From the NCBI RefSeq assembly GCF_004010195.1, contig NC_057720.1, positions 84,247,918 through 84,311,917 on the forward strand: a DNA stretch of 64,000 bases, read 5' to 3'. The stretch's first letter is position 1, and each line of letters starts with the position of its first letter. The notes beneath the pieces were generated by a model. It did not search any database, was not told where the DNA came from, and was given only the letters and a program-made list of their open reading frames with translations. Positions 1,875-50,984 of this stretch are shown piece by piece. The position numbers were made by a program, and so were the translations under genes. Origin of the DNA: Chiloscyllium plagiosum (Eukaryota).

Positions 1875-2950
1875 GGAAGGAGTCCATAAGACTTGGACAA
1901 CATTCAGGTTTGGACCGACAGATGGCAAGTGACATTTGTGTCACCTAAGTGCTAGGCAATGCTACCCAACAAAAGAGAATCCAAGCATCTCCCTGTGACA
2001 TTTAATGGTATTACTATTGTTGAATTCACTATTATCAACGTTCTTGGAGGTTACCATTGAATAGAAACTGAACTTGAATAGTCATAAAATGCAAGTATAG
2101 ATCAGACGCTAGGGCTCCTGCAATGAGTAATTCACCTCCTGATTTCTCTAAGCCTATCCACATATATAAGACACAAGTTAGAAGTGTGCTTAAATACTCT
2201 CCACAGAAGATGGATGAGTGCAGCTTCAACATTATCATTTGGGACAAAGCAGCCTGCTTGATTGGAATCACATCCACTTCCTCCACCACCGATGTTCAGT
2301 AGCAGAGGTGTGTACTATTTACAAAATGCAGTGTAAAACTTTGCCAAAGATCCTTCCAAACCCACAACGACTTCAATCTAGAACAAAAGCAACACATACA
2401 TAAGAACACCATCTGCTGCAAGTTTATCTCCAAGTCACTCACCATCTTGAACTGGAAACATATCATTGTTCCTTCACTGTCTCTGGATCAAAATCCTGGA
2501 ATTCTCTCCCTAACGACATTGAGAGTCTATCTACAGCACATGGACTACAGCGGTTCAAGGCAGCGGCTTTCCAACATCTTCTCAAGGAAAAAATGGGACG
2601 GACAATAAATGCTGGTCCAGCCAGTGACACCGATGTCCCTTGAGTCACTAAAAAAAATGCAGTCGCTGCAGTATGTACCATGCACAAGATGCACTGCAGA
2701 AATTCATCAAGGCTCCTTCACAGTATCTTCAAAACTTGTGGTCTGTACCAGGTGGAAGGATAAGGGCAACAAAAGTATGTGAACACCACTACTTGCAAGT
2801 TTCCCTCCCAGCCACACACTATCCTCTACAGCTGGTCCTTAATGATTGTTCAGTCAAAATCTTGGAATTTCCTTCCAACAGCACATGAATTTTAATGATT
2901 CAAGAATGCAGCTCAGTCCCACCTTCTCAAGGGAAGTTAGAGATGGGAAA
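1875..2950 (+). mobile_element. Two tandem 3' fragments of the ORF1-less CR1-group LINE (family B)
   Basis: 1875-2657 and 2660-2950 align by eye with 16820-17650 (e.g. CAATAAATGCTGGTCCAGCCAGTGAC; CAAGATGCACTGCAGAAATTC). Confidence 0.85.
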
Positions 2951-3793
2951 TGATAATGAGGTTTTGAAAGGTGAATGTCTTGGACACTCTCCATGTGATC
3001 TCCTACGTCTTTTGCCTGACATCAAGCTTGTGTGGCCTGGGGACTGGATGCCCTAGGCATGTATTATTGAAATCCACATCAGGTTTAATACTCTGAATAC
3101 AACGATAGAAGCAGATGCTTTTATTTCTGCACACTTTCTGCTGCAGAGATTTTGAATGGGAACGGGCAGTGAAAGAGACAGAAAAATGACAGTTGCTATG
3201 GTCTGCAGAAGGAAAAAGCTCTTTTCTCTGTATGCTACCAGACAGAATGCTGGGGCAAGTTTACCCACTGGTCAAAGAGGAGAATCTGCAGCGATATAAA
3301 ATCACAAGAAGATTTGTTCTGGAAAAGTCATGAAAAGAAATGACTTTATCACTGAAAGTCAATTCTGGAGTTCTCAAAAGACCGAAGAAAAGGACTTTCG
3401 GTGGTAACTGGATATCACAGTGTGGCCAAACGGTAGAAATTTACTCATTAGAAGTGGAGTGTGATCTTATGTTGTTTCTTGAAAAGAATGCAATTTTATA
3501 GAGAACATGCTGTACTGCAATGCATATATACTTTTGTGCGTGTTGAGGGTTATCAGTTGCATTAAAACTTGAATAATAGTTATCTTTTGTTGTCATCAGC
3601 ATCAGTTGTCTAAATAATATTTACTTGATGCTGATTTTAGTTTATTTCTTGCAGTAAATATCATTAAACTTGGGAATTCAAATATTTTTTCTGAAAAGGA
3701 AATCTTCTGTCATGATACGCTATGTTCAAATGGCATCATTATGCATATTCAGTAACTTGTCAGAAATTATTCTGTGATATCGGTCATCCAACA
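2951..3793. mobile_element. Possible old solo LTR
   Basis: TG...CA bounded ~840-bp block with LTR-like composition; no TSD found. Confidence 0.25.
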
Positions 3794-4644
3794 ATGCCTA
3801 AAACAACCCCTTTTCCTGCAGCTCTCCTCTTTGCTTCCCATAAGATTTTTGCATCTTTTCATCTCTGATCAAATTATCAAAATACTGACAATATCTTTTC
3901 TCGATGTCATTTTTAAACAGTACTTTTCCTCCTACAATTTAATGATTCTATAGCTTATAAAAATCTTAATTCTCAATACTGAACTTTGCATTTCCTATAT
4001 CACAGTGGTAACGGTAATCAAAAGTACAGAAGGATTTCAGGATGTCCTAGAAATGTCAAAGTTGCTATATAGCTCCTCACCTTTTGGTTTTTGTTGATTT
4101 TCCTTCAATTAAGTAACCCTGGCTATGCCGTTAAATATACAATGCACTACAGCCTTAAATAACATCACAAACTTGTAACTTTGTTAATAAGTACAACCCT
4201 CAATTTTTGTGCCCATTGCATCTTTGAAACTGCAACTGGGCACTATTAGAAACTCATGTGATGATATAGCTTCTGTCGAACTGAGTCATGTTGCAGTGTC
4301 ATGCACCAGTTTGGAGTGTGAAGCACATGAAGTGCATCTGTCCCAACCTGTTGACCAGAAGCTTTGGGCATAATGTATCTGCGTTCAGGCTGTCTATCCT
4401 GAGCACAGGTTGGGAGAGAGGAGTTGACCTCTATATTGCCCTGATTTTGTCCTAAGCTCACCTCTGCGCTACTGTTGTCAAAATTTGTCACAAAATGCTG
4501 TTATAGGCAAGGTTGTATATTCTCTGATAATGTAGGGTTTGTTCAGTGCAATTTCAAAAGATACTATCTAAGACATTTCTATAAAGTACCTGTACAATTT
4601 CATTTTAATTCTCAGAAAGATTATGACTTGGAAAATGCCTGTCT

Positions 4645-7680: not shown

Positions 7681-8183
7681 GTGAATAATAACTATATTTC
7701 TTGTGCAGCTGACACCATGTTGTTAAAGTTTTTTTCCAAGGTCCAAGGATGGCACCTACAACTTCTGGCAGATGTTAGTCTGTTATTATGAATATAAACA
7801 GCTATTTGAAATAATATGCAAGAATATTACACTGAAACTGAAGGAGTATTCAGACAGTTGGTACTGTGGCAAGCCTACATCCATCCTATGTAAATATGTT
7901 TGGCTGTTAACTACAAGTTTTACACTGGGATAGTCTCCAGAGGAATAGTACTGAGAAGTAGTGATATTAATCTAACACTTTATCAGACAATGCTTATACA
8001 AAATAATGCTGTAAATTCTATTCAATTCTATGACAAATATAAAATGTTGAATATCTGGTAGTACTCTTGGCTCCAAGCATAATTTTCAATAAAGGGGTGT
8101 CTTATATTGTTTATGAATAACAACAAATGTAGCAGAAGAAACTAATGATCACCATGTTTTAAATGGCACTTGAACTTGGTCAC

Positions 8184-8639
8184 TGTCATGATTGGAACCA
8201 GGACCAGGTGGATTTCATTGATTATGAGATCCTTGATTGGGGCTGTTAACCTGGGCCAATCAGAAAGTCCTGGCTGATAGATACAAACAGGAGATCCACA
8301 CACAACATGGGTGCTGGGAAGAAAAACAAACAAACAGGAGATCATGCAGCATTGCCCTTTGATGAGAAGGGGACTGCTTGTCACTGGCCACTCTGGTGAA
8401 TCCTTTCTTCCTGGTGGTGAAAAATGAATAAAGATTTGTACACCTGTTGTCTTTCACTGTGTCTCACATCTGCGCACAATGACAAGGGTGCTGGGGTAAA
8501 AATAAGCACTACCGCTGTTAGGCAGTAGTGTGGGGGAGAAAAAAAAAGAAAAAATATAACCTGGAGAGAGGGCCCTCTTGTGATGTAGAAAAAAAGGAAA
8601 AAGATACAAACAGGAGATTCAGCAGATCTTAGTCTAGGG
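8184..8639 (+). mobile_element. Gypsy (Mag-type) LTR interrupted by non-LTR tails and by the hAT
   Basis: 8184-8295 plus 8619-8639 align with the reverse complement of the LTR at 50487-50711 (TGT..ATTGGAA..CCAGGTGGAT..CTTGATTGGGG.TGTTAACCTGGG..CCTGGCTGA.AGATA.AAA.AG.AGATTCAG..TCTAGGG). Confidence 0.8.
8296..8601 (+). mobile_element. Two 5'-truncated non-LTR retrotransposon 3' tails (L1/Tx1-like) at one target site
   Basis: 17-bp TSD AGATACAAACAGGAGAT at 8279-8295 and 8602-8618, partial third copy at 8330-8342, AATAAA at 8427, A-rich tails, 3' hairpins. Confidence 0.7.
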
Positions 8640-10621
8640 CAGGGGTGGAGAACCTGCGGCCTTCTCGGCCATTGTGTGTGGCCTTTTGAATGAATCCAAA
8701 TTTTGCAGGATTGGGAAGTGCAATATTATTTTGTGTCTGCTAAAGATAGGATGATTTGCTTGCTTTGTGATACTGCAAGATCAACATTGAAGAAATATAA
8801 TGCTTATCACAAGGACCACAAATATTTCACATTAGAGGGAGAGGTGCGGAAGGTTGCATTGCAGAAATTAAAAGATGAAAAGCAAAAGCAAAGACAGTTA
8901 TTTCAAGCAGTATTAAGACCCAGAAAAAATGCCACTGAAGCAACATATAAAGTAGCTTATATACTCGGGAAAAGGAGGAAGCCTTTCAGCGATGTGGAAA
9001 TCGTAAAAGAATGTATTGTCGAAGTTGTAGGGTGCTTAGACCCCGATAATGTTCCAAAGTACAAACAACTGCCTCTTTCAAGGAGAACCATAACTTATCG
9101 GCAGCATGAATTAGCCCTCCAACAGAACACCTCCAACAAATACTCCAAAAAAAAAATACATATTATTCAATCGCTTTGGATGAATCAACTGATACTACCG
9201 ACTCAGCGCAGGCTTTATACTTCAATCGGGCCATAGCAGAAGATTTTATTTGCTACAAAGAGTTACTGACTTTGGGCACTCTTACAAGTAGAACACGAGG
9301 AATAGATATCTTCACAAACTTTCAAGATAAATGTCGTGAATTTGAACTGAATTTAGTTAATTTAGTGAGTGTATGTACAGACGGTGCGCCTTCCATGACA
9401 GGAAAACATGAAGGGTTTATTGCACAGATAAAAAAAGTATTATCAGATCCAGATGCTCTCATTTCTTTTCATTGTATCTTACATCAGCAAAATCTCTGTG
9501 CCAAATCTACTATTTTAAGTGACACTTTGCAACAAGTTATAAGTATTGTTAACTATATTCGTGCAAATGCAACACGGCATCGTCGGTTTTGTAACATGCT
9601 AAAGTAGGATGATGAGGTATTCAGTGAGGATTTGCCGTAACATTGCCATGTGTTGGCTACCGCAGGGACAGGTGTTAGCACAAATTTTATCTTTGCGAGA
9701 ACAGGTAATTAAATTTTATGAAGAACAGAGTCAGCAATGCGAATTAGTGAAAGAAGATTTCTGTAGAAATGCTGCATTTCTGTGTGATATCACGTCAAAG
9801 CAAAATGACTTGAATATTTCTTTGCAAAGTAAAACTAGGTCCAAATACAATATGTGGCAAAAAAATCCAAGCATTTTGAAAAATGCTATCTTTTTTCAAA
9901 ACTCTTCTTTTTCAAAAGGAAATTTCTGATGAACATTTTCCCCAGTTAACAAAGGTCATTGATGAACTGGAGGATTCTTGCGAATCATTTGAAGAATACG
10001 GAGCTGTTATAAACTTATTAATTGGAAAATACAATGAAAGGTTCTCTGACTTTGAGAATCATGACATCACACTCAAATTAGCATTTCAACCTCACCTAGT
10101 TGATGTCTCCTAAAGAACTAGAGATGGAATTGATTGAGCTCTCAAAAGATGACATTTTAAAGTCCTTATTTGATGCTAAGAAAGATCCGATTGAAATGTG
10201 GAAAAATGCAACAGAATACCCATGCCTTCGGCAACATGCACGAAAAATGCTTTCTTGCTTTTCAACCACTTATTGCTGCGAATCTACATTCTCCTACTTA
10301 ACCAAATTCAAGACGCTCTTAAGGTCACAAGTGACGGATACCCATCTAGAGGATCAGCTAAAACTGCAGACCTCCATGCTGCAATCAAATATTCAAATGC
10401 TTTCCTACAAAAAACAGTCACAACAAAGTCATTAAAAGGTTAATTAACTTTAGAATTAACTTTTTTTTTTCATTTTCTATAGTTAGTTAGATTATTAGTT
10501 AGATTTTTACAAAATAATGTGAATTTTGAAGAATATATAATTGAAGTTTCTTGGATGCGGCCTTACTAGATTACAACTAACATAATGCGGCCTTCCAACA
10601 TGAAAAGGTTCCCCACCTCTG
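8640..10621 (+). mobile_element. hAT DNA transposon, Buster/Charlie family (OposCharlie1-like)
   Basis: TIRs CAGGGGTGGAGAACCT / CAGAGGTGGGGAACCT (14/16); perfect 8-bp TSD GTCTAGGG (8632-8639, 10622-10629) with central TA; subterminal TGCGGCC repeats. Confidence 0.95.
8703..10435 (+). pseudogene. hAT (Buster-type, GTF2IRD2/ZBED5-like) transposase, frameshifted
   Basis: BED-like CLLC..H; LDESTD; VCTDGAPSMTG; FHCILHQQNLCAK (CxxH); FSTTYCCESTFS; split over about five ORFs by frameshifts and stops. Confidence 0.93.
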
Positions 10622-14324: not shown

Positions 14325-17300
14325 GGGTAGGCAATGGCCTAGTAGTATTATTGCGAGATTATTAATCTCGAAACTCAGCAAATGTTCTGGGGGCCTGGGT
14401 TCAAACCCCGCCTTAGGAAATGGTGGAATTTGGATTCAATAAAAAGGATCTGGAATTAAGAATGTACTGATCACCATGAAATCATTGCTGATTGTTGGAA
14501 AATCCCATCTGGTTCATTAATGTCCTTCAGGAAAGAAAGCTGTCATCCTTACCTGATCTAGCCTATATGTGGCTCCAGATCCAAAGCAATGTGGTTGACT
14601 CTCAATTGCCCTCTGAAATGGCCTAGTGAGCCATTCAGTTGTACCAATCACTACAAAGTCTCACAGAAATGAAACTGGATGGATCAATTGGTATTGACCA
14701 AGGCACCAGAAAAGACAAAGGCAGAAGCAGCCGTTGTTGACCCTGCAAAGTCCTCCTCACTAACATCTAGGGGCTATGCCAAAATTGGGAGAGTTGTCTC
14801 ACAGACTAGTCAAGCAACAGCCTGACATCGTCATACTGATGGAATCATACCTTACAGACAATGTCCCAGACATCACCATCACCATCCAAGGATATGTACT
14901 GTCCTAGCAAGAGGATAGACCCAGCAGAGGCAGCGCAGTGGTGTACAGTCGGAAAGGAGTCCTCAACATAAGTCTGGACCCCATGAAGTCTTGTGGCTTC
15001 AGGTTAAACATGGGCAACGAAACCTCCTGCTGATTACCACGTACCCTCCTCCCTCAGCTAATGGATCGGTACTCCTCCATGTTGAGCAACACTTAGAGGA
15101 AGCACTGATAGCAAGGGAACAAATGTACTCTGGGTGGGGGATTACAATGTCCACCATCAGGAGTGGCTTGGCAGCAGTACTACAGATTGTGCTGATTGTG
15201 TCCTAAAGGACATAACTGCTAGACTGGGTCGGCGGCAGGTGGTGAGGGAACCAACAAGAGGGAAAATGTACTTGACCTCATCCTTACCAATCTGTCAGCT
15301 GCAGATGCACTGTCCATGGCAGTGTTGGTAAGAGTGACCACAGCACAGTCCTTGTGGAGACGAATTCCCGCCTTCACATTAAGAATAACCTCCAATGTGT
15401 TGCATTGACACTATCACTGTGCTAAATGGGACAGGCTTCGACCAGATTCACCTGCTTAAGACTGGGCATCCATGAGGTGCTGTGGGCCATCAACAACAAC
15501 AGACTTTTACTCCAGCACAATCTGTAACCTCGTGGCCCAGCATACCCCCTACTCAACCATTACCATCAAGCCAGGGGATCAACCTTAGCTCAATGGAGAG
15601 TATAGGAGGGCATGCCAGAAGCAGCACCAGGCATATCTGAAGATGAGATGTCAACCTGGTGAAGCCACCAAACAGGACTACTTGCATGCCAAACAGGACA
15701 AGCAGCAAGTGATAGACAAAGTGATCCCACAACCAACAGATTAGATCGAAAGTCTACAGTCCTGCCACGTCCAGTCACAAATGGTAGTAGACAATTAAAC
15801 AACTAACTGGAGAAGAAGGCTCCAAAAACATCCCCATCATCAAAGTTGGAAGAGCGCAACACATCAGTGCAAAAGAGCCCAACACATCAGTGCAGCAATC
15901 TTCAGCTAGCAGTGCCGAATGGATGATTCATCTTGGCCTCCTCCAGTAGTCCCCAGCATTACAGATACCAGTCTTCAGCCAACGCGACTGACTCCACGTG
16001 ATATCAAGAAACAGTTCGAGACACTAGGTACTGCAGAGGCTACAGGCCCTGATGACATTAGGCAATTGTACTGAAGTTGCTGCTACCATAGTCAAGCTTT
16101 TCAAGTATAGTCTGCACTGATGTATTGCGCTCTTCCAACTTTGATGATGGGGATGTTTTTGGAGCCTTCTCCTCCAGTTAGTTGTTTAATTGTCTACTAC
16201 CATATGCTCTAGAAGTTGCTGCTACCCTAGCCAAGCTCTTCTAGTATAGTCTAGCTAGTATCCAACCAACAATGTGGAAAATCGCACAAGTACATCCTGT
16301 ATATAAAAAGGACAAATCCAACCCAGCCCCATCTGTCTACCCTCGATTATCTGTAAAGTGATGGAAGGTGTCGTCAACAGTGCTATCAAGCACCACCTGC
16401 TCAGTGACACCCCGTTTGGGTTCCACCAGGGACAGTCAGCTTCAGACTTCATTACAGCCTTAGTTCAAAAATGGACAAAAAAGCTGAATTCGACAGGTGA
16501 GGTGAGAGTGACAACCCTTGACATCAACGCTGAACTTGACCGAGTATTGCATCAAGGAGTGCCACCTAAACTGAAATCAATGAGTATGAGGTAGCAAACC
16601 CTCCAGTGGTTCGAGTCATACCTGTCACATAGGAAGATAGTCATGATTGTTGGAGGTCAGTCATCTCAACTGGAGTTCTTCAGGGTAGTGTCTTAGGCCC
16701 AACCATCTTCAGCCGCTTCATCAACAACCTTCCCTCCGTCATAAGGTACGAAGTGGGGATGTTTGCCGATAATTGCTCAATGTTCAGCACCATTCACAAC
16801 TCCTCAGATACTGAAACAGTCCATGTTCAAATTCAATAAGATCTGAACAATATCCAGGCTTGGCTGACAAGTGGTAAGTAACATTCACATCACACAAGTG
16901 CCAGGCTATGACCATCACAAATGACAGACAATCCAACCACCGCCCCAAGTCATTCAACTGCTTTACCATCACTGACTCCCCCCCCACCAACATCCTAGGG
17001 GTTATCATTGACCATAAACTCAACTGGGCTCACCACATAAACACAGTGGCTACAAGAACAGGTCGAAGCCAGTAAGTACCGCAGTGAATAACTCACCTTC
17101 TAACTCCTCAAAACCTGTCCACCATCTACAAGGCACAAGTCAGGAGTTTGATGGATCCCCACTTGCCTGGATAACTGCAGCCCCAACAACACTCAAAAAG
17201 CTTGACACCATCCAGGACAAAGCAGCCTGTTTGACTGGCACTATATCCACAAACATTCACTTCCTCCACCACTGATGCTCAGCAGTAACAATGTATACTA

Positions 17301-22799: not shown

Positions 22800-23633
22800 T
22801 GTTATGAAGATGTGGGTGTACTGTACATTTAAGTGAGTTAAAAGCTAGCAGAACTACCTGACAGCACCAAGTGTTCTGAACAAGATATAATATAACCTTT
22901 TTGTCCAGTAGCTAGGGTAGCTGGTTGCCTGGAAATGACATGGGTTAAACCCTCCTGCTTAATTTAAACCAGCAGCACAGAATAGGTTTACCCCATGCAG
23001 TAATCTGTGAAAATTCAAAAGTAAAAATTAACAACTTTATTCCTTATTCCTTAAAGTATAACAGAGAATAATTAACTGACAACTATTTGCAACTTTTTCC
23101 TCTAACCTCTCTTTTACTTTCCCTTCTATAATACTAGTCTGATAAAATACTCGATTTAGATTTACCAAAATTCAAATTTTCAAAACCAGCCAGATGTTAA
23201 ATCTTCTCTTTATATCTTCCTTGGTCTTTTTTTCTACTTCTTAGAGATTTCTGTTTCACAGGTTACTGATCGATAAAGGTACCTTTACGAGAGCTATTCT
23301 CCGGGCAGCCTCCATTATCGGTGGCTTGGCAGTTCCCCTCCCAACCGTTCAATTTTCCCTGGTCTTATACCCCCAAAGCATCAGATTTTGTCATTGACTT
23401 TTAACATTGTCAACATACTAAATTCAAACTTGACTGGAGTATGGTATTTTTCAGGGTATAGTTTAAACTGGTTGGCCTAATTTGAATCTGTTTGGTCGTT
23501 TCCAGGCAACCAGCTACCCTAGCTACTGGACCAAAAGGTTACGTTATATCTTGTTCAGAACACTTGGTGCTGTCAGGTAGTTCTGCTAGCTTTTAACTCT
23601 CTTAAAATGTACAGTACACACATCTTCACGACA
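22800..23633 (-). mobile_element. Solo LTR with ~140-bp terminal inverted repeats
   Basis: IR 22800-22939 / 23495-23633; TGT..ACA ends; minus-strand GGGGGTATAAGA (TATA) and AATAAA; flanks TTTG/TATG (4-bp TSD with one mismatch). Confidence 0.8.
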
Positions 23634-46779: not shown

Positions 46780-49700
46780 CCCCAGGTCCGGTTCCTCCAA
46801 CTCTGACTCGGATACGGGCAGCATGAAGTCAGTTTCTTGCGCCCGGTATGTCACAGGAGTTTCCTCGTCTTCTTCAGATGGTAACGGTATTGATCTGAGG
46901 TTTTTTCGATGCTAGACGGAGGGGTTTCTGACAGCCTTTTTGGCTGCTGTGAGGGGCCAGGTAGCAGCTTTCAGGTGACCTACATGTTTGTTTAGGACCA
47001 CGTCACCTACCTGAACTGCGCATGTCACAGGACCTGACCTCATGTTGACCTCACCCCATACCCATCCAGGCCAATTTTGTGTTGTTAACACCAAACTTTG
47101 TCCCTGAAGTAAACTGCCCCTCGCGTTTAGGGGAGACATGTGGCAACACTGACTTTCCTGGTATGGAGCTGTCCAAACATGCCGAATTGCCATTCGACTT
47201 TAGGGACTACTCAAAATTACTACATCCCATTGTCTGTGACCAATTCTTCTGGGAATCCGCGTACCGCGAATGATGCTCGCGGCTTTCCAATCGTCATCCC
47301 TGAGTTTGCAAAATGAATGCTATATACGTCCAACCACTTTGAAAATGCATCCACAATAACCAAGAACATGAGCCCGTGAAAGGACTGGCACAGTCGACAT
47401 GTAAGCAAGTCCAGGGTTTACCCGGCCATTCCCACGAATGTAGGGAAGGCAGTAATTTTTGTCCTGTTAGCACCCTGGGCATTGCTCCATCAATGCAGCT
47501 ATGTTAGCATCCAATCCTGGCCACCAGACATAACTCCTTGCCAACATTTTCACTTTGGCAACCCCATGGATGACCCTGGTGGAGTTCAGCCAGTAACTGG
47601 CAGCAACCTTTACTCTGGACGATCACTCTTGCTCCACACAATAATATGCTATCCTCTACAATGATCTGGTCTCACTGGGTCCAGAAAGGTTTCAATTCTG
47701 CTTGTGATGGTCCTTTTGTTTCCCTCAACACCACCAAATATTTTAGTTTTGCCACGATGGGATATTTTTCTGTCCACAGTCAGACGTTATCAGTGGTGAC
47801 TGGAAGGGTGTCCAAAGAGTTTAAAACCAGAATGAACTCTTCCAAGGGAGGCAGCCCCTGTGGTGTATCTGCCAGTGGAATCTGCATTTGCCACTTGGCC
47901 TCCTCGACGGTGTTCCAACTTGTAATTATACACATTGAGAATAAGGGCAGGCTGAATTCAACCAGAAACTATGGGCTGTAGGGCCTGATCTTCTTCAAGT
48001 AGCCCGAGCAGAGATTTGCGATCTGTGACTATAATAAATTTATGTCCGTAAAGGTATTGGTGGAACTTTCACAAACCAAAGATGACTGCCAAACCTTTCT
48101 TATCTACTTGGGTATATTTACGTTCAGCATTAGTCAAAGTCTACGAAGCATACACTATGAGATGTTTCACTTTGTTGGGCACTGCTGAGCCAACACTATC
48201 CCGATACCGTACGGGGAGGCATCACATGTCAGCATCACCTCTCATTTAGGATCGTAGTGAACCGACACCTTAGATGACGATGGCTGCTTTTTTCACTTCT
48301 CTAAAGGCTACATCTTGGCTATATGGCCATTTCCAAGGCTGTCTCTTTTTCAATAGCAGGTGTAAGGGTGCTAAGATGGAGGCCAGGTTATGCATCAATT
48401 TTCTGTACACTGTAATTCATCAACACAAGGAAAGACCTCATCTGTGGTACAGACGTGGCATCTTTGATCACCCTCAGTTTAACTTCCAACAGGTGTAACC
48501 TGATCTTGTCCACTTTGTCATCCAAGTAGGTCACTTGGGGTGCTTGGAACACACATTTTCTCTTTCGAAGGCATATACTTACCTCAGAGAACCATTTAAG
48601 CATGATGTCCAAGTTCTCCATGCTTTTTATTGGTCTTCCCAGTTGTTAGCATGCCATCCAGATAAATGGCAATGTCTCACGCCGAGCACATCCAGGGCAA
48701 AGGAACCCTAGGTCAGCCCACAGCAAAGCCCCAAAACAAAGCCAAACCTCAGCCAGGCGGCTAAAAGGTTCTTCAGGTTTCAGGTCAGCAAGCTATTGCA
48801 GACCTTGTAAAATGGTCCAATGGAAAACGGCGTAGGCTGATGATACCCTAAATGGCAGTCTCATATATTGGTACAAACCCTTATGCATACTATGGCATAC
48901 TTCTGGGACACCTCAATTTGTTGCAATTGTAGATATGCACGATTTATATTCATCTTCATGAAGGGCAGCTCCCCATATACCCGCAACACCTCCTCCCGCA
49001 AACTACACTAGTTTAATGAACCCTTAGCTTTCCAGCCTCCTGATTTCGGCCTCTACTTTTGTCCATAAGGCAAATGGCATTGGGTGAGCCTTGAAGTATC
49101 GCAGAATTGCTTCCTGGACAACATGTAAGGTGGCCTTGATCCTTTGGTAGACCCTAAACCCTTCTGAAAATCTTCCAGGTATTTAATTATGACTTCACTC
49201 AGACCGCCATGTTCTAATCAAAAATGTTGAGGCAATCAAGATAAACCTTTCTTAAACAATTCCACCCCACCAGGCTCGGACCCAAGCTTTTTACTGGTGC
49301 AGTGGTAACTGCACCAACCGCTTCTCATAGGAAGACTGAAACTGACGTCGTACCCTTCATCTGTAATGGTTCCTTGGTGTACATTCTCAGTTTGATAGAG
49401 GTCTTGCGCCAACTTAAGGGTTGGAGTCCACAGTGAATCTTTTTAAACACTGGTTCTGCAACCATTGATGCAGCTTCACCAATATTGATCCCCATGGGAA
49501 CTGGGGTGACCATTTAAAAAGACATCGATTTTGATTGGATGTTGCCAAACAATTTAACTGTTCCAAAATACATGTAAGTGGACTTTCCAAGGAGTGCACA
49601 CTCATGGATACTGACCAATGAATCCTCCTACTCAAGTCAGGCCTTGTTGGACTCCTTTGCTGTCTCAAGTTTGTACACCAGCAGCAACTACAATGGCTTG

Positions 49701-50486
49701 CTGGATCCTGAAGAACGTTTCACCCACTTGGCAGAGGCTTGGCTTTGTTTTTGGGTTTTGCTGTAGGCTGTCCCAGGATCCCTTTACTCTGGATTTGCTC
49801 TCCATGAGATTCTGTTCACTTAAATAGTGTTCCCAAGGCTCAGTTGGACAGGTGAGGATGTCCACTTCCATTGGGATTCCCTTTGGCTCCCATGCTCCAC
49901 TTGCTGCATTTTCTAAGGACAATACCAGTTGTACGTGCCCATTTGAAGTCCATTTGGGGTTCAGGTAGTAGGTGCTTTTGCATGGTCAGGTCATTAATCT
50001 CATTTACCAAATGGTCTCTCAGCATCACATTCAGGATTAACCCAAAATCACATGCCTCTGCCAGTTATCTTAACTTCATCAAAAAACTCAACATGGATTC
50101 TCCTGGCTCTTGAAGTGCTGAATAAAACCATTAGCTTCCCAGAATTAAAGGCGGTTTGGGGTCATAATATTCCTTAACTAAATCCGTCAACTCTTGAAAA
50201 TTTTAACTATTTGGCTCCTCAGGGAGAGTTAGGCTCCTAATAACTGAAAATGCTGCAGGTCTTCAAGCAGTCAGAAAGATTCTTCATTGCTTTTCATCTA
50301 CCTCAATGTCATTCGCCTGAAAAAAATAACATTCTTTCTACACACTGGGCCCAGTCTTCAGCAGCAAGATGGAATGCGTCAAGCTTCCCAAATAAAGATG
50401 TGATGCCAGAAATGCTTATGCTAACTCAAAGACAACTGTTGCAAGCAAACTTTCCTCAGGCGCATACTATTTTCTCTAATTACCAC
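46780..50486 (-). mobile_element. Gypsy LTR retrotransposon (Mag clade) internal gag-pol, decayed, 3' LTR absent
   Basis: gag LFGKLDAF..EDWAQCVERM and LRDHLV; PR FLNG..NIGEAAS; RT RLPFRVSSA, IYLDG, KCVFQAPQVTYL; RNase H LTCDASPYGIG; IN GHP..KMLARSYVWWP, WEWPGKPW..LHVD, IVDAFSKW, GFPEELVTDNG. Confidence 0.92.
48676..48800 (+). repeat. Inverted, diverged gag fragment inserted in the Gypsy RT
   Basis: Reverse complement aligns with 49686-49809 (TTGGCTTTGTTTT.GG..TTTGCTGT.GGCTG). Confidence 0.85.
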
Positions 50487-50711
50487 AGGAATAGCTGCAC
50501 AGGCCGGTATCCAATCACAAAGTCACCCTTTACTTGCATGTGCACAGTACATGGGCTCTGACCAGCCAGCTCAGTCCCTAGAATCAGGAGACTCTCTGAA
50601 TCTTCTATTTATATCTGTCAGCCAGGGCTCCCTGCCTGACCCAGGTTAACAACCCCAATCAAGATTCCCACAGTTAATAAGATCCACCTGGCCCTCATTC
50701 CAATTACTACA
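50487..50711 (-). mobile_element. 5' LTR of the Mag-type Gypsy element
   Basis: Begins TGTAGTAATTGG, has a GATATAAATAG TATA box, and is followed by a GTGG PBS-like sequence and gag. Confidence 0.8.
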
Positions 50712-50984
50712 GCTTCACAAACTCTGTAAATTATCCTGATGCCTGGGAGTAGTATGCTGGAGGCAAGGTGCAATACTGCAGCAAGAGAAATGGAGAAGAG
50801 GTTTACATGGGGTTAGATTGCAAATCAGCCAAAATCTTACTGAATGATGGAATAGGCTTGGGATATCTGATTGTTTACACATATTCCACATCTTTAATTA
50901 AAAAAATTCCAAGAGTTTCACAAAGGCATTAGATAAAAATAAGTTACCAGTTGATGGGGATCCATTTGAAGGAGTGACTAAAGA

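Follow-up and report, generated by a model that had tools for sequence, protein, structure and literature searches.

Within a 64,000-nucleotide stretch of the Chiloscyllium plagiosum genome (the window), a Gypsy long terminal repeat (LTR) is interrupted by A-tailed non-LTR pieces at the position of its TATA box, which raises the question of whether a retroelement family aims at the promoter of another element and, if so, by what it finds the site. The sequence AGATACAAACAGGAGAT was found at 8279-8295 and 8602-8618, with a 13-nt copy at 8330-8342 and an empty site on the minus strand at 50600-50616; a degenerate 17-mer pattern gave five matches at two mismatches or fewer, compared with 0.20 expected, and none of 100 shuffles reached five. 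An earlier sequence-only reading had correctly placed these copies, the empty site near 50600, the AATAAA, the hairpin, and the palindrome. The answer that we favor, by a modest balance of probability, is that an old Gypsy LTR carries two separate 5'-truncated Tx1 copies at its TATA box and that this family-preferred site is likely found through a CCAAT-plus-TATA layout (Table 1).

Table 1. Features of the locus and of the related LTR, in window coordinates.
Feature	Position	Strand	Basis
Gypsy LTR, 5' (U3) part; LTR about 230 bp	8184-8295	+	78% to the LTR at 50480-50711
ATTGG box; CCAAT box; TATA position (here TACAAAC)	8236-8240; 8256-8260; 8282-8288	+	read from sequence
Target-site duplication, 5' copy, 17 nt	8279-8295	+	pattern match; locus-specific variant
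Short Tx1 insert: 23 nt of 3' UTR, stopping at an internal A-run, plus A tail	8296-8329	+	exact family core at 26/143 sites
Target-site duplication, middle copy, 13 nt	8330-8342	+	pattern match
Long Tx1 insert: last ~195 nt of LINE 3' UTR plus A tail	8343-8555	+	family matches, joined to ORF2 in L006, L031, and L179
Landmarks of the long insert: 5' hairpin; AATAAA; terminal hairpin	~8348-8375; 8427; 8507-8530	+	sequence, fold prediction
Third piece with an A tail: palindrome (8567-8578) and a target-like motif that differs from the local one	8556-8601	+	sequence
Target-site duplication, 3' copy, 17 nt	8602-8618	+	pattern match
LTR downstream part (B-type), start only	8619-8639	+	aligns to natural copies L263 and L179
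hAT DNA transposon within the LTR	8640-10621	+	8-bp duplication 8632-8639/10622-10629; Pfam Dimer_Tnp_hAT E=3e-8
Gypsy internal region, broken, behind the LTR at 50480-50711	46900-50479	-	Integrase_H2C2 E=8e-6, rve E=4e-4
Related 5' LTR with empty site (50600-50616)	50480-50711	-	sequence comparison, pattern match

The host LTR was compared with its relative in the window, and 8183-8298 was 78% identical to 50597-50712. From its position, 8282-8288 probably takes the TATA role, because a CCAAT box lies upstream and, in empty copies, an Inr-like TTCACT at about +30 and an AATAAA follow further on. The internal region behind the related LTR has the Gypsy order, with the integrase after RT/RNase H and carrying an H2C2 zinc finger, the Ty3 RT/RH match upstream of the integrase domains being weak (E=0.17); gag and protease were recognized by eye only and gave no match in Pfam. 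Solo LTR copies measured 195-253 bp and had the TG...CA termini expected of Gypsy, and a 5-bp duplication (at least four of five bases) surrounded them in 6 of 22 rows, representing five distinct LTRs. The best 150 relatives of the protease were at most 73% identical to the query, itself decayed, and mostly contained stops. Judged from these sequences, the host LTR family looks long dead, its Gypsy copies older and broken. As to the suggestion that the inserts disrupt the LTR, the cost to Gypsy is probably small, since its copies are older and broken. The hAT element, which is broken and has terminal inverted repeats, entered later than the LTR that hosts the Tx1 inserts and cuts it at 8640; beyond 10629, the remainder of the LTR is not recognizable, with alignment scores no higher than those of shuffles. 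Elsewhere in the window, 22828-23606 and 15778-16206 are MITE-like, with inverted arms of 112 nt (96%) and 94 nt (97%).

The inserts record more than one event. TACAAAC occurs in both outer duplications and in none of 37 comparable sites (L032-L131), which indicates that the duplication was made at this locus, and the TATA there already read TACAAAC before the first insertion. A proposed gain of an upstream TATA box is thus plausible for the family, but at this locus the box had mutated beforehand. The variant in the middle duplication was seen in 3 of 125 target copies elsewhere. The 22-nt core of the short insert matched exactly at 26 of 143 family sites and the long insert's version at none, the long insert being about 86% identical to young family copies; probably two insertions took place, the short one later. 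A single tandem duplication of both inserts was ruled out, as their cores and both their 5' and 3' ends differ. The two inserts recognized previously are indeed two Tx1 copies, but the region of the long one holds two A-tailed segments. The additional piece (8556-8601) had no source in the LINE library, the LTR library, or the loci compared, and was probably carried along from a donor locus. The arms of the terminal hairpin (8507-8515 and 8522-8530) form eight of nine pairs, and an Rfam search of 8000-8800 returned only one sub-threshold snoRNA match.

By sequence, the inserts are the 3' ends of a Tx1-clade LINE. The long insert had 4301 candidate relatives, the best 40 of which (itself apart) were 85-90% identical, and exact 30-mers of two tail variants occurred 933 and 2388 times in the genome. 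Upstream of the tail, the family continues into ORF2 and ORF1. One full-length copy (L179) lies between the two halves of a single LTR, and its ORF2 was 52% identical to Xenopus Tx1L over 628 amino acids of the EN-RT part. In a FastTree analysis of 35 of the matches, midpoint-rooted with no L1 outgroup and without labelled Keno, Tx1-Mar, or crocodilian sequences, the query formed a clade with Tx1L and two turtle proteins (support 1.0), in agreement with the clade first proposed for the tail. The Tx1 architecture of ORF1 plus an ORF2 with AP endonuclease followed by RT was found in L031 and L179 (Pfam Exo_endo_phos and RVT_1), and a Tx1-type poly(A) tail, 5' truncation, and target-site duplication were all present. 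The 5' UTR includes about 0.8 kb of GC-rich repeats. In L031, a satellite of ~26-nt units (2760-4130) lies directly upstream of a long Tx1 copy, in the place of the LTR.

Site preference was counted from both sides. When tails were taken in genome order, LTR U3 sequence stood at the 5' end of the array in 30/67, 14/20, and 6/12 cases (50/99 in all), where the first figure comprises 29 by script and L061 by hand, and where L069 (no TATA), L073 (running through the passenger element described below), and L453 (atypical) are imperfect assignments. The same three samples contained 13, 2, and 3 off-LTR arrays with a duplication (18/99); the remaining 31 of 99 were left unassigned owing to gaps, locus edges, or lack of a duplication. 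Arrays dropped as identical or already counted amounted to 3 of 70 loci, 2 of 30 passenger loci, and 5 of 30 passenger plus 18 of 30 LINE loci. The LTR share was therefore 50 of 68 resolved arrays (74%), and it is not the case that most copies lie at unrelated sites. Counting from the LTR, with 4 of 60 loci removed as duplicates, 14 of 56 unique LTRs were occupied directly behind the site (13 by the LINE and one by the passenger), and two further LTRs (L116 and L242) held an A-tailed, LTR-only piece there. Both counts bear out the claim of repeated insertion at the LTR TATA site. In two of the 56 LTRs (L118 and L121), unrelated SINE-like inserts followed this TATA at a distance of 11-22 nt.

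All inserts at the LTR site were on the LTR's strand, an opposite-strand tail occurring at one locus, further off. Among 21 well-resolved 5' junctions, hand-picked from 52 rows, 19 fell at TATA +13 to +17; the duplications, for which the automatic finder was noisy, measured 12-17 nt, starting inside the TATA box and ending near +15. One target type accounted for more than the 20% of flanks by which Kojima (2015) recognizes a target-specific Tx1 family (50/99 arrays), and the strict Tx1L-like pattern of practically all copies at one site was absent, since 18 of 68 resolved arrays lay off-LTR with duplications. Targeting is a strong preference and is not exclusive.

Such counts could also arise without targeting, if one ancestral LINE-in-LTR had been amplified with the LTR or if local tandem duplications had multiplied the inserts, and 4 of 9 arrays examined do contain copies with identical 5' ends. 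However, loci differ from one another in the 5' ends of their inserts and in the subfamilies of both the LINE and the host LTR, the duplications bear locus-specific variants, and LTR copies are only ~80% alike compared with ~94% for LINE tails (both samples favoring young copies). We consider this explanation extremely improbable; it is refuted both at this locus and across the family, and the single local tandem duplication that would have accounted for the window inserts fails on their differing cores and ends.

What guides insertion was approached through a control set of perfect 12-mers with non-LTR upstream bases, which numbered 106 sites genome-wide, as many as a reversed control. Of the 70 examined, nine were LTR-derived and none of the other 61 was occupied; the difference in occupancy between LTRs and isolated 12-mers was significant (14/56 versus 0/60, Fisher p=1.4e-5), also when only 25 controls were used, allowing for recently arisen motifs (p=0.004). 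The short motif is therefore insufficient. Context matters as well, since about 4.7 million sites (scaled from the window) lie within two mismatches of the 10-mer core, yet 12 of 13 off-LTR targets had at least three mismatches to it.

The 12-mer control alters upstream bases, and a longer recognized sequence is compatible with its result. The endonuclease or ORF2 protein might then read 20-30 bp of LTR sequence directly, like Tx1L on Tx1D, with the TATA box incidental and an internal promoter of the LINE's own, for which the repeats in its 5' UTR would be suited; we hold this possible, though well short of probable. The endonuclease of the closest relative, Tx1L, is described as sequence-specific in vitro on its own (PMC1950540), and direct reading would also fit the sharp placement of the junctions. 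Several occupied LTRs read TAAGAAC at the TATA position and the window locus reads TACAAAC; a canonical TATA is thus not needed, a point in favor of direct reading. Against it, 14 of 27 occupied LTRs departed from the 10-mer at two or more positions, in some cases because flanks were misplaced, and the off-LTR sites agree in CCAAT spacing and not in sequence.

Scores gave no clear assignment of these off-LTR sites to the LTR family; the samples are small, mix two families, and include related repeats. A CCAAT or ATTGG box occurred upstream within a wide window in 6/13 sites post hoc (p=0.003) and in 6/16 fresh loci (p=0.011), against a background of 13%. Within a narrow window fixed beforehand, the figure was 5/16 against 6.2% (p=0.002), with 2/16 on the downstream side. 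The enrichment points tentatively to promoter layout as the guide. By eye, 7 of 45 off-LTR sites have the spacing of the LTR itself, with a CCAAT in sense orientation 23-28 nt ahead of the duplication. Against guidance by layout, 30 of 45 lacked a box within the narrow window, a count made by eye for the first 13. Two off-LTR pairs represent further repeats, equipped with CCAAT or ATTGG boxes, that were hit at a TATA-like motif. L444 and L463 share a repeat in which two CCAAT boxes accompany a TATA, and the insertion lies at that TATA; L050 and L197 share another one, with ATTGG boxes, in which the LINE accounts for one hit and the passenger for the other. A hammerhead-like core lies just downstream in L444, which we take to suggest a Penelope-like end; Rfam found no ribozyme in L444 or L463.

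In target-primed reverse transcription, the endonuclease nicks the target and the poly(A) tail primes synthesis at the nick. Here, that nick would fall in the bottom strand of the TATA box, which is rich in T, and would be the priming site for the poly(A) tail; the particle would be steered by CCAAT- and TATA-bound proteins (NF-Y and TBP) or by DNA that they open, and a loose A-rich endonuclease preference would fix the position of the cut. We regard such steering by promoter proteins or open DNA, combined with an A-rich cut preference, as evenly poised between right and wrong. Guidance could instead come from RNA-DNA pairing, in which carried target copies behind the tail and LTR-like heads would anneal to the LTR in a self-reinforcing manner. 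Many tails are indeed followed by carried-along target and LTR pieces, and the A-tailed LTR-only pieces in L116 and L242 would suit such pairing; isolated perfect 12-mers nevertheless stay empty, and copies with target pieces also land off-LTR (L038 and L050), so that we consider pairing quite improbable.

Each insertion at the preferred site would rebuild the target, which would then be available again; re-use of the rebuilt site at the LTR TATA, yielding arrays, was observed. Arrays also grow by local duplication or repeated copying, as indicated by members with identical 5' ends within L123, L125, L185, L326, and L072, the last with ten or more. Insertion order was compared in nine arrays; among the eight without a tie, the U3-adjacent insert seemed to be the younger one in six (p=0.06), which amounts to no more than a hint. 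In L032-L131 and L242-L271, truncated inserts tend to begin 180-205 nt before the end of the tail, where the 5' arm of a 3'-UTR hairpin lies; a single 20-nt bin takes up 35 of 121 junctions, L072 contributing 11. The long insert of the window (from 8343) and many type-B heads start within this cluster, which may reflect an RT stall or a minimal mobilizable unit.

Full-length LINE heads begin with LTR sequence from the target onward; the head of L134 matched the LTR leader over ~70 nt with a score of 118, compared with at most 33 for shuffles. L179 carries an A-type head within a B-type LTR, so the head came with the RNA. Of 30 heads, four had the whole leader and 26 had an LTR leader remnant behind a piece of the LINE's own 3' UTR, which was cut just before its AATAAA and had scattered 5' ends. 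A second family, a non-coding passenger of ~1.8 kb with GC-rich repeats, has a head copied from the B-type LTR and no ORF2 match along its length. Its arrays were at the same LTR site in 33 of 93 cases and off-LTR in 27, and it is intermixed in LINE arrays (L182-L211, L346-L348, L381-L430, and L461-L480).

LTR-derived heads in two converging elements fit transcription from U3, and we consider transcription of full-length copies and passenger from the LTR U3 slightly short of an even prospect on this sequence evidence. Each insertion would rebuild a promoter-leader junction, since the heads copy the leader that follows the target in the LTR; truncated copies lying upstream would act as an expendable 5' buffer. 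Two features speak against this reading: the heads start no later than about +16, ahead of the predicted +30 start, and 26 of the 30 retain just a remnant of the leader. The GC-rich 5' UTR repeats are a possible alternative, as an internal promoter. A transcript search in contigs of four runs (three presumed to be RNA) gave short pieces only and no start.

Among known elements, Tx1L of Xenopus laevis (YTX2_XENLA) is the closest, with the EN-RT identity given above and likewise one site in another transposon, Tx1D. The shark family differs in that its target is an LTR promoter and not a piggyBac-type DNA transposon, in that about a quarter of resolved insertions lie elsewhere, and in that its RDGH-bearing endonuclease loop is three residues shorter and different. 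HeT-A elements have sacrificial 5' ends. Like HeT-A and R2, the latter described as co-transcribed from an outside promoter (PMC4494074), the shark elements would use an outside promoter and renew their 5' ends from upstream sequence; unlike in these, the sequence copied into the head lies downstream of the cut, and a different mobile element would supply the promoter. A preference for LTR retrotransposons has been described for the crocodilian Tx1 families Tx1-8_Crp and Tx1-4_AMi, together with the observation that passengers share a target and the proposal of transcription from the flanking target (Kojima 2015, PMC4494074). Those families cluster with Keno, whereas the shark family groups with Tx1L (in a tree without labelled Keno or Tx1-Mar); the text considered here gives neither LTR type nor position for them, and a TATA-box site may be contained in supplementary figures S3-S4. 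A literature search, with subscription papers and Repbase notes mostly outside its coverage, returned no TATA-box- or CCAAT-guided Tx1, nor this family. LTR preference is thus already known in Tx1 relatives, and the likely aiming by promoter layout is the new part.

For a tether of the kind considered here, TRE5-A of Dictyostelium and Ty3 of yeast, which integrate position-specifically through promoter factors (PMC5911963), may serve as models; TRE5-A ORF1 binds TBP, Brf1, and Bdp1 (PMC5911963). Theirs are Pol III genes, whereas the putative promoter here is a Pol II one of the CCAAT/TATA type. The most far-reaching version, which we put forward tentatively and consider rather unlikely as a whole, is that NF-Y and TBP bring LINE and passenger to core promoters of Pol II, that the cut is made at the TATA about 25 bp behind the CCAAT, and that both elements subsist on a dead LTR's promoter, with the LTR's leader copied into their heads, as a Pol II counterpart of TRE5-A and Ty3 tethering.

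The locus belongs to a large and countable case in which the promoter of one mobile element is the landing pad of another, with about a quarter of sampled LTRs occupied. If promoter layout sets the site, the family would be a Pol II promoter-guided LINE. If true, this would allow tests of how target choice shifts among close relatives of Tx1L, and would also be relevant to site-directed LINE tools.
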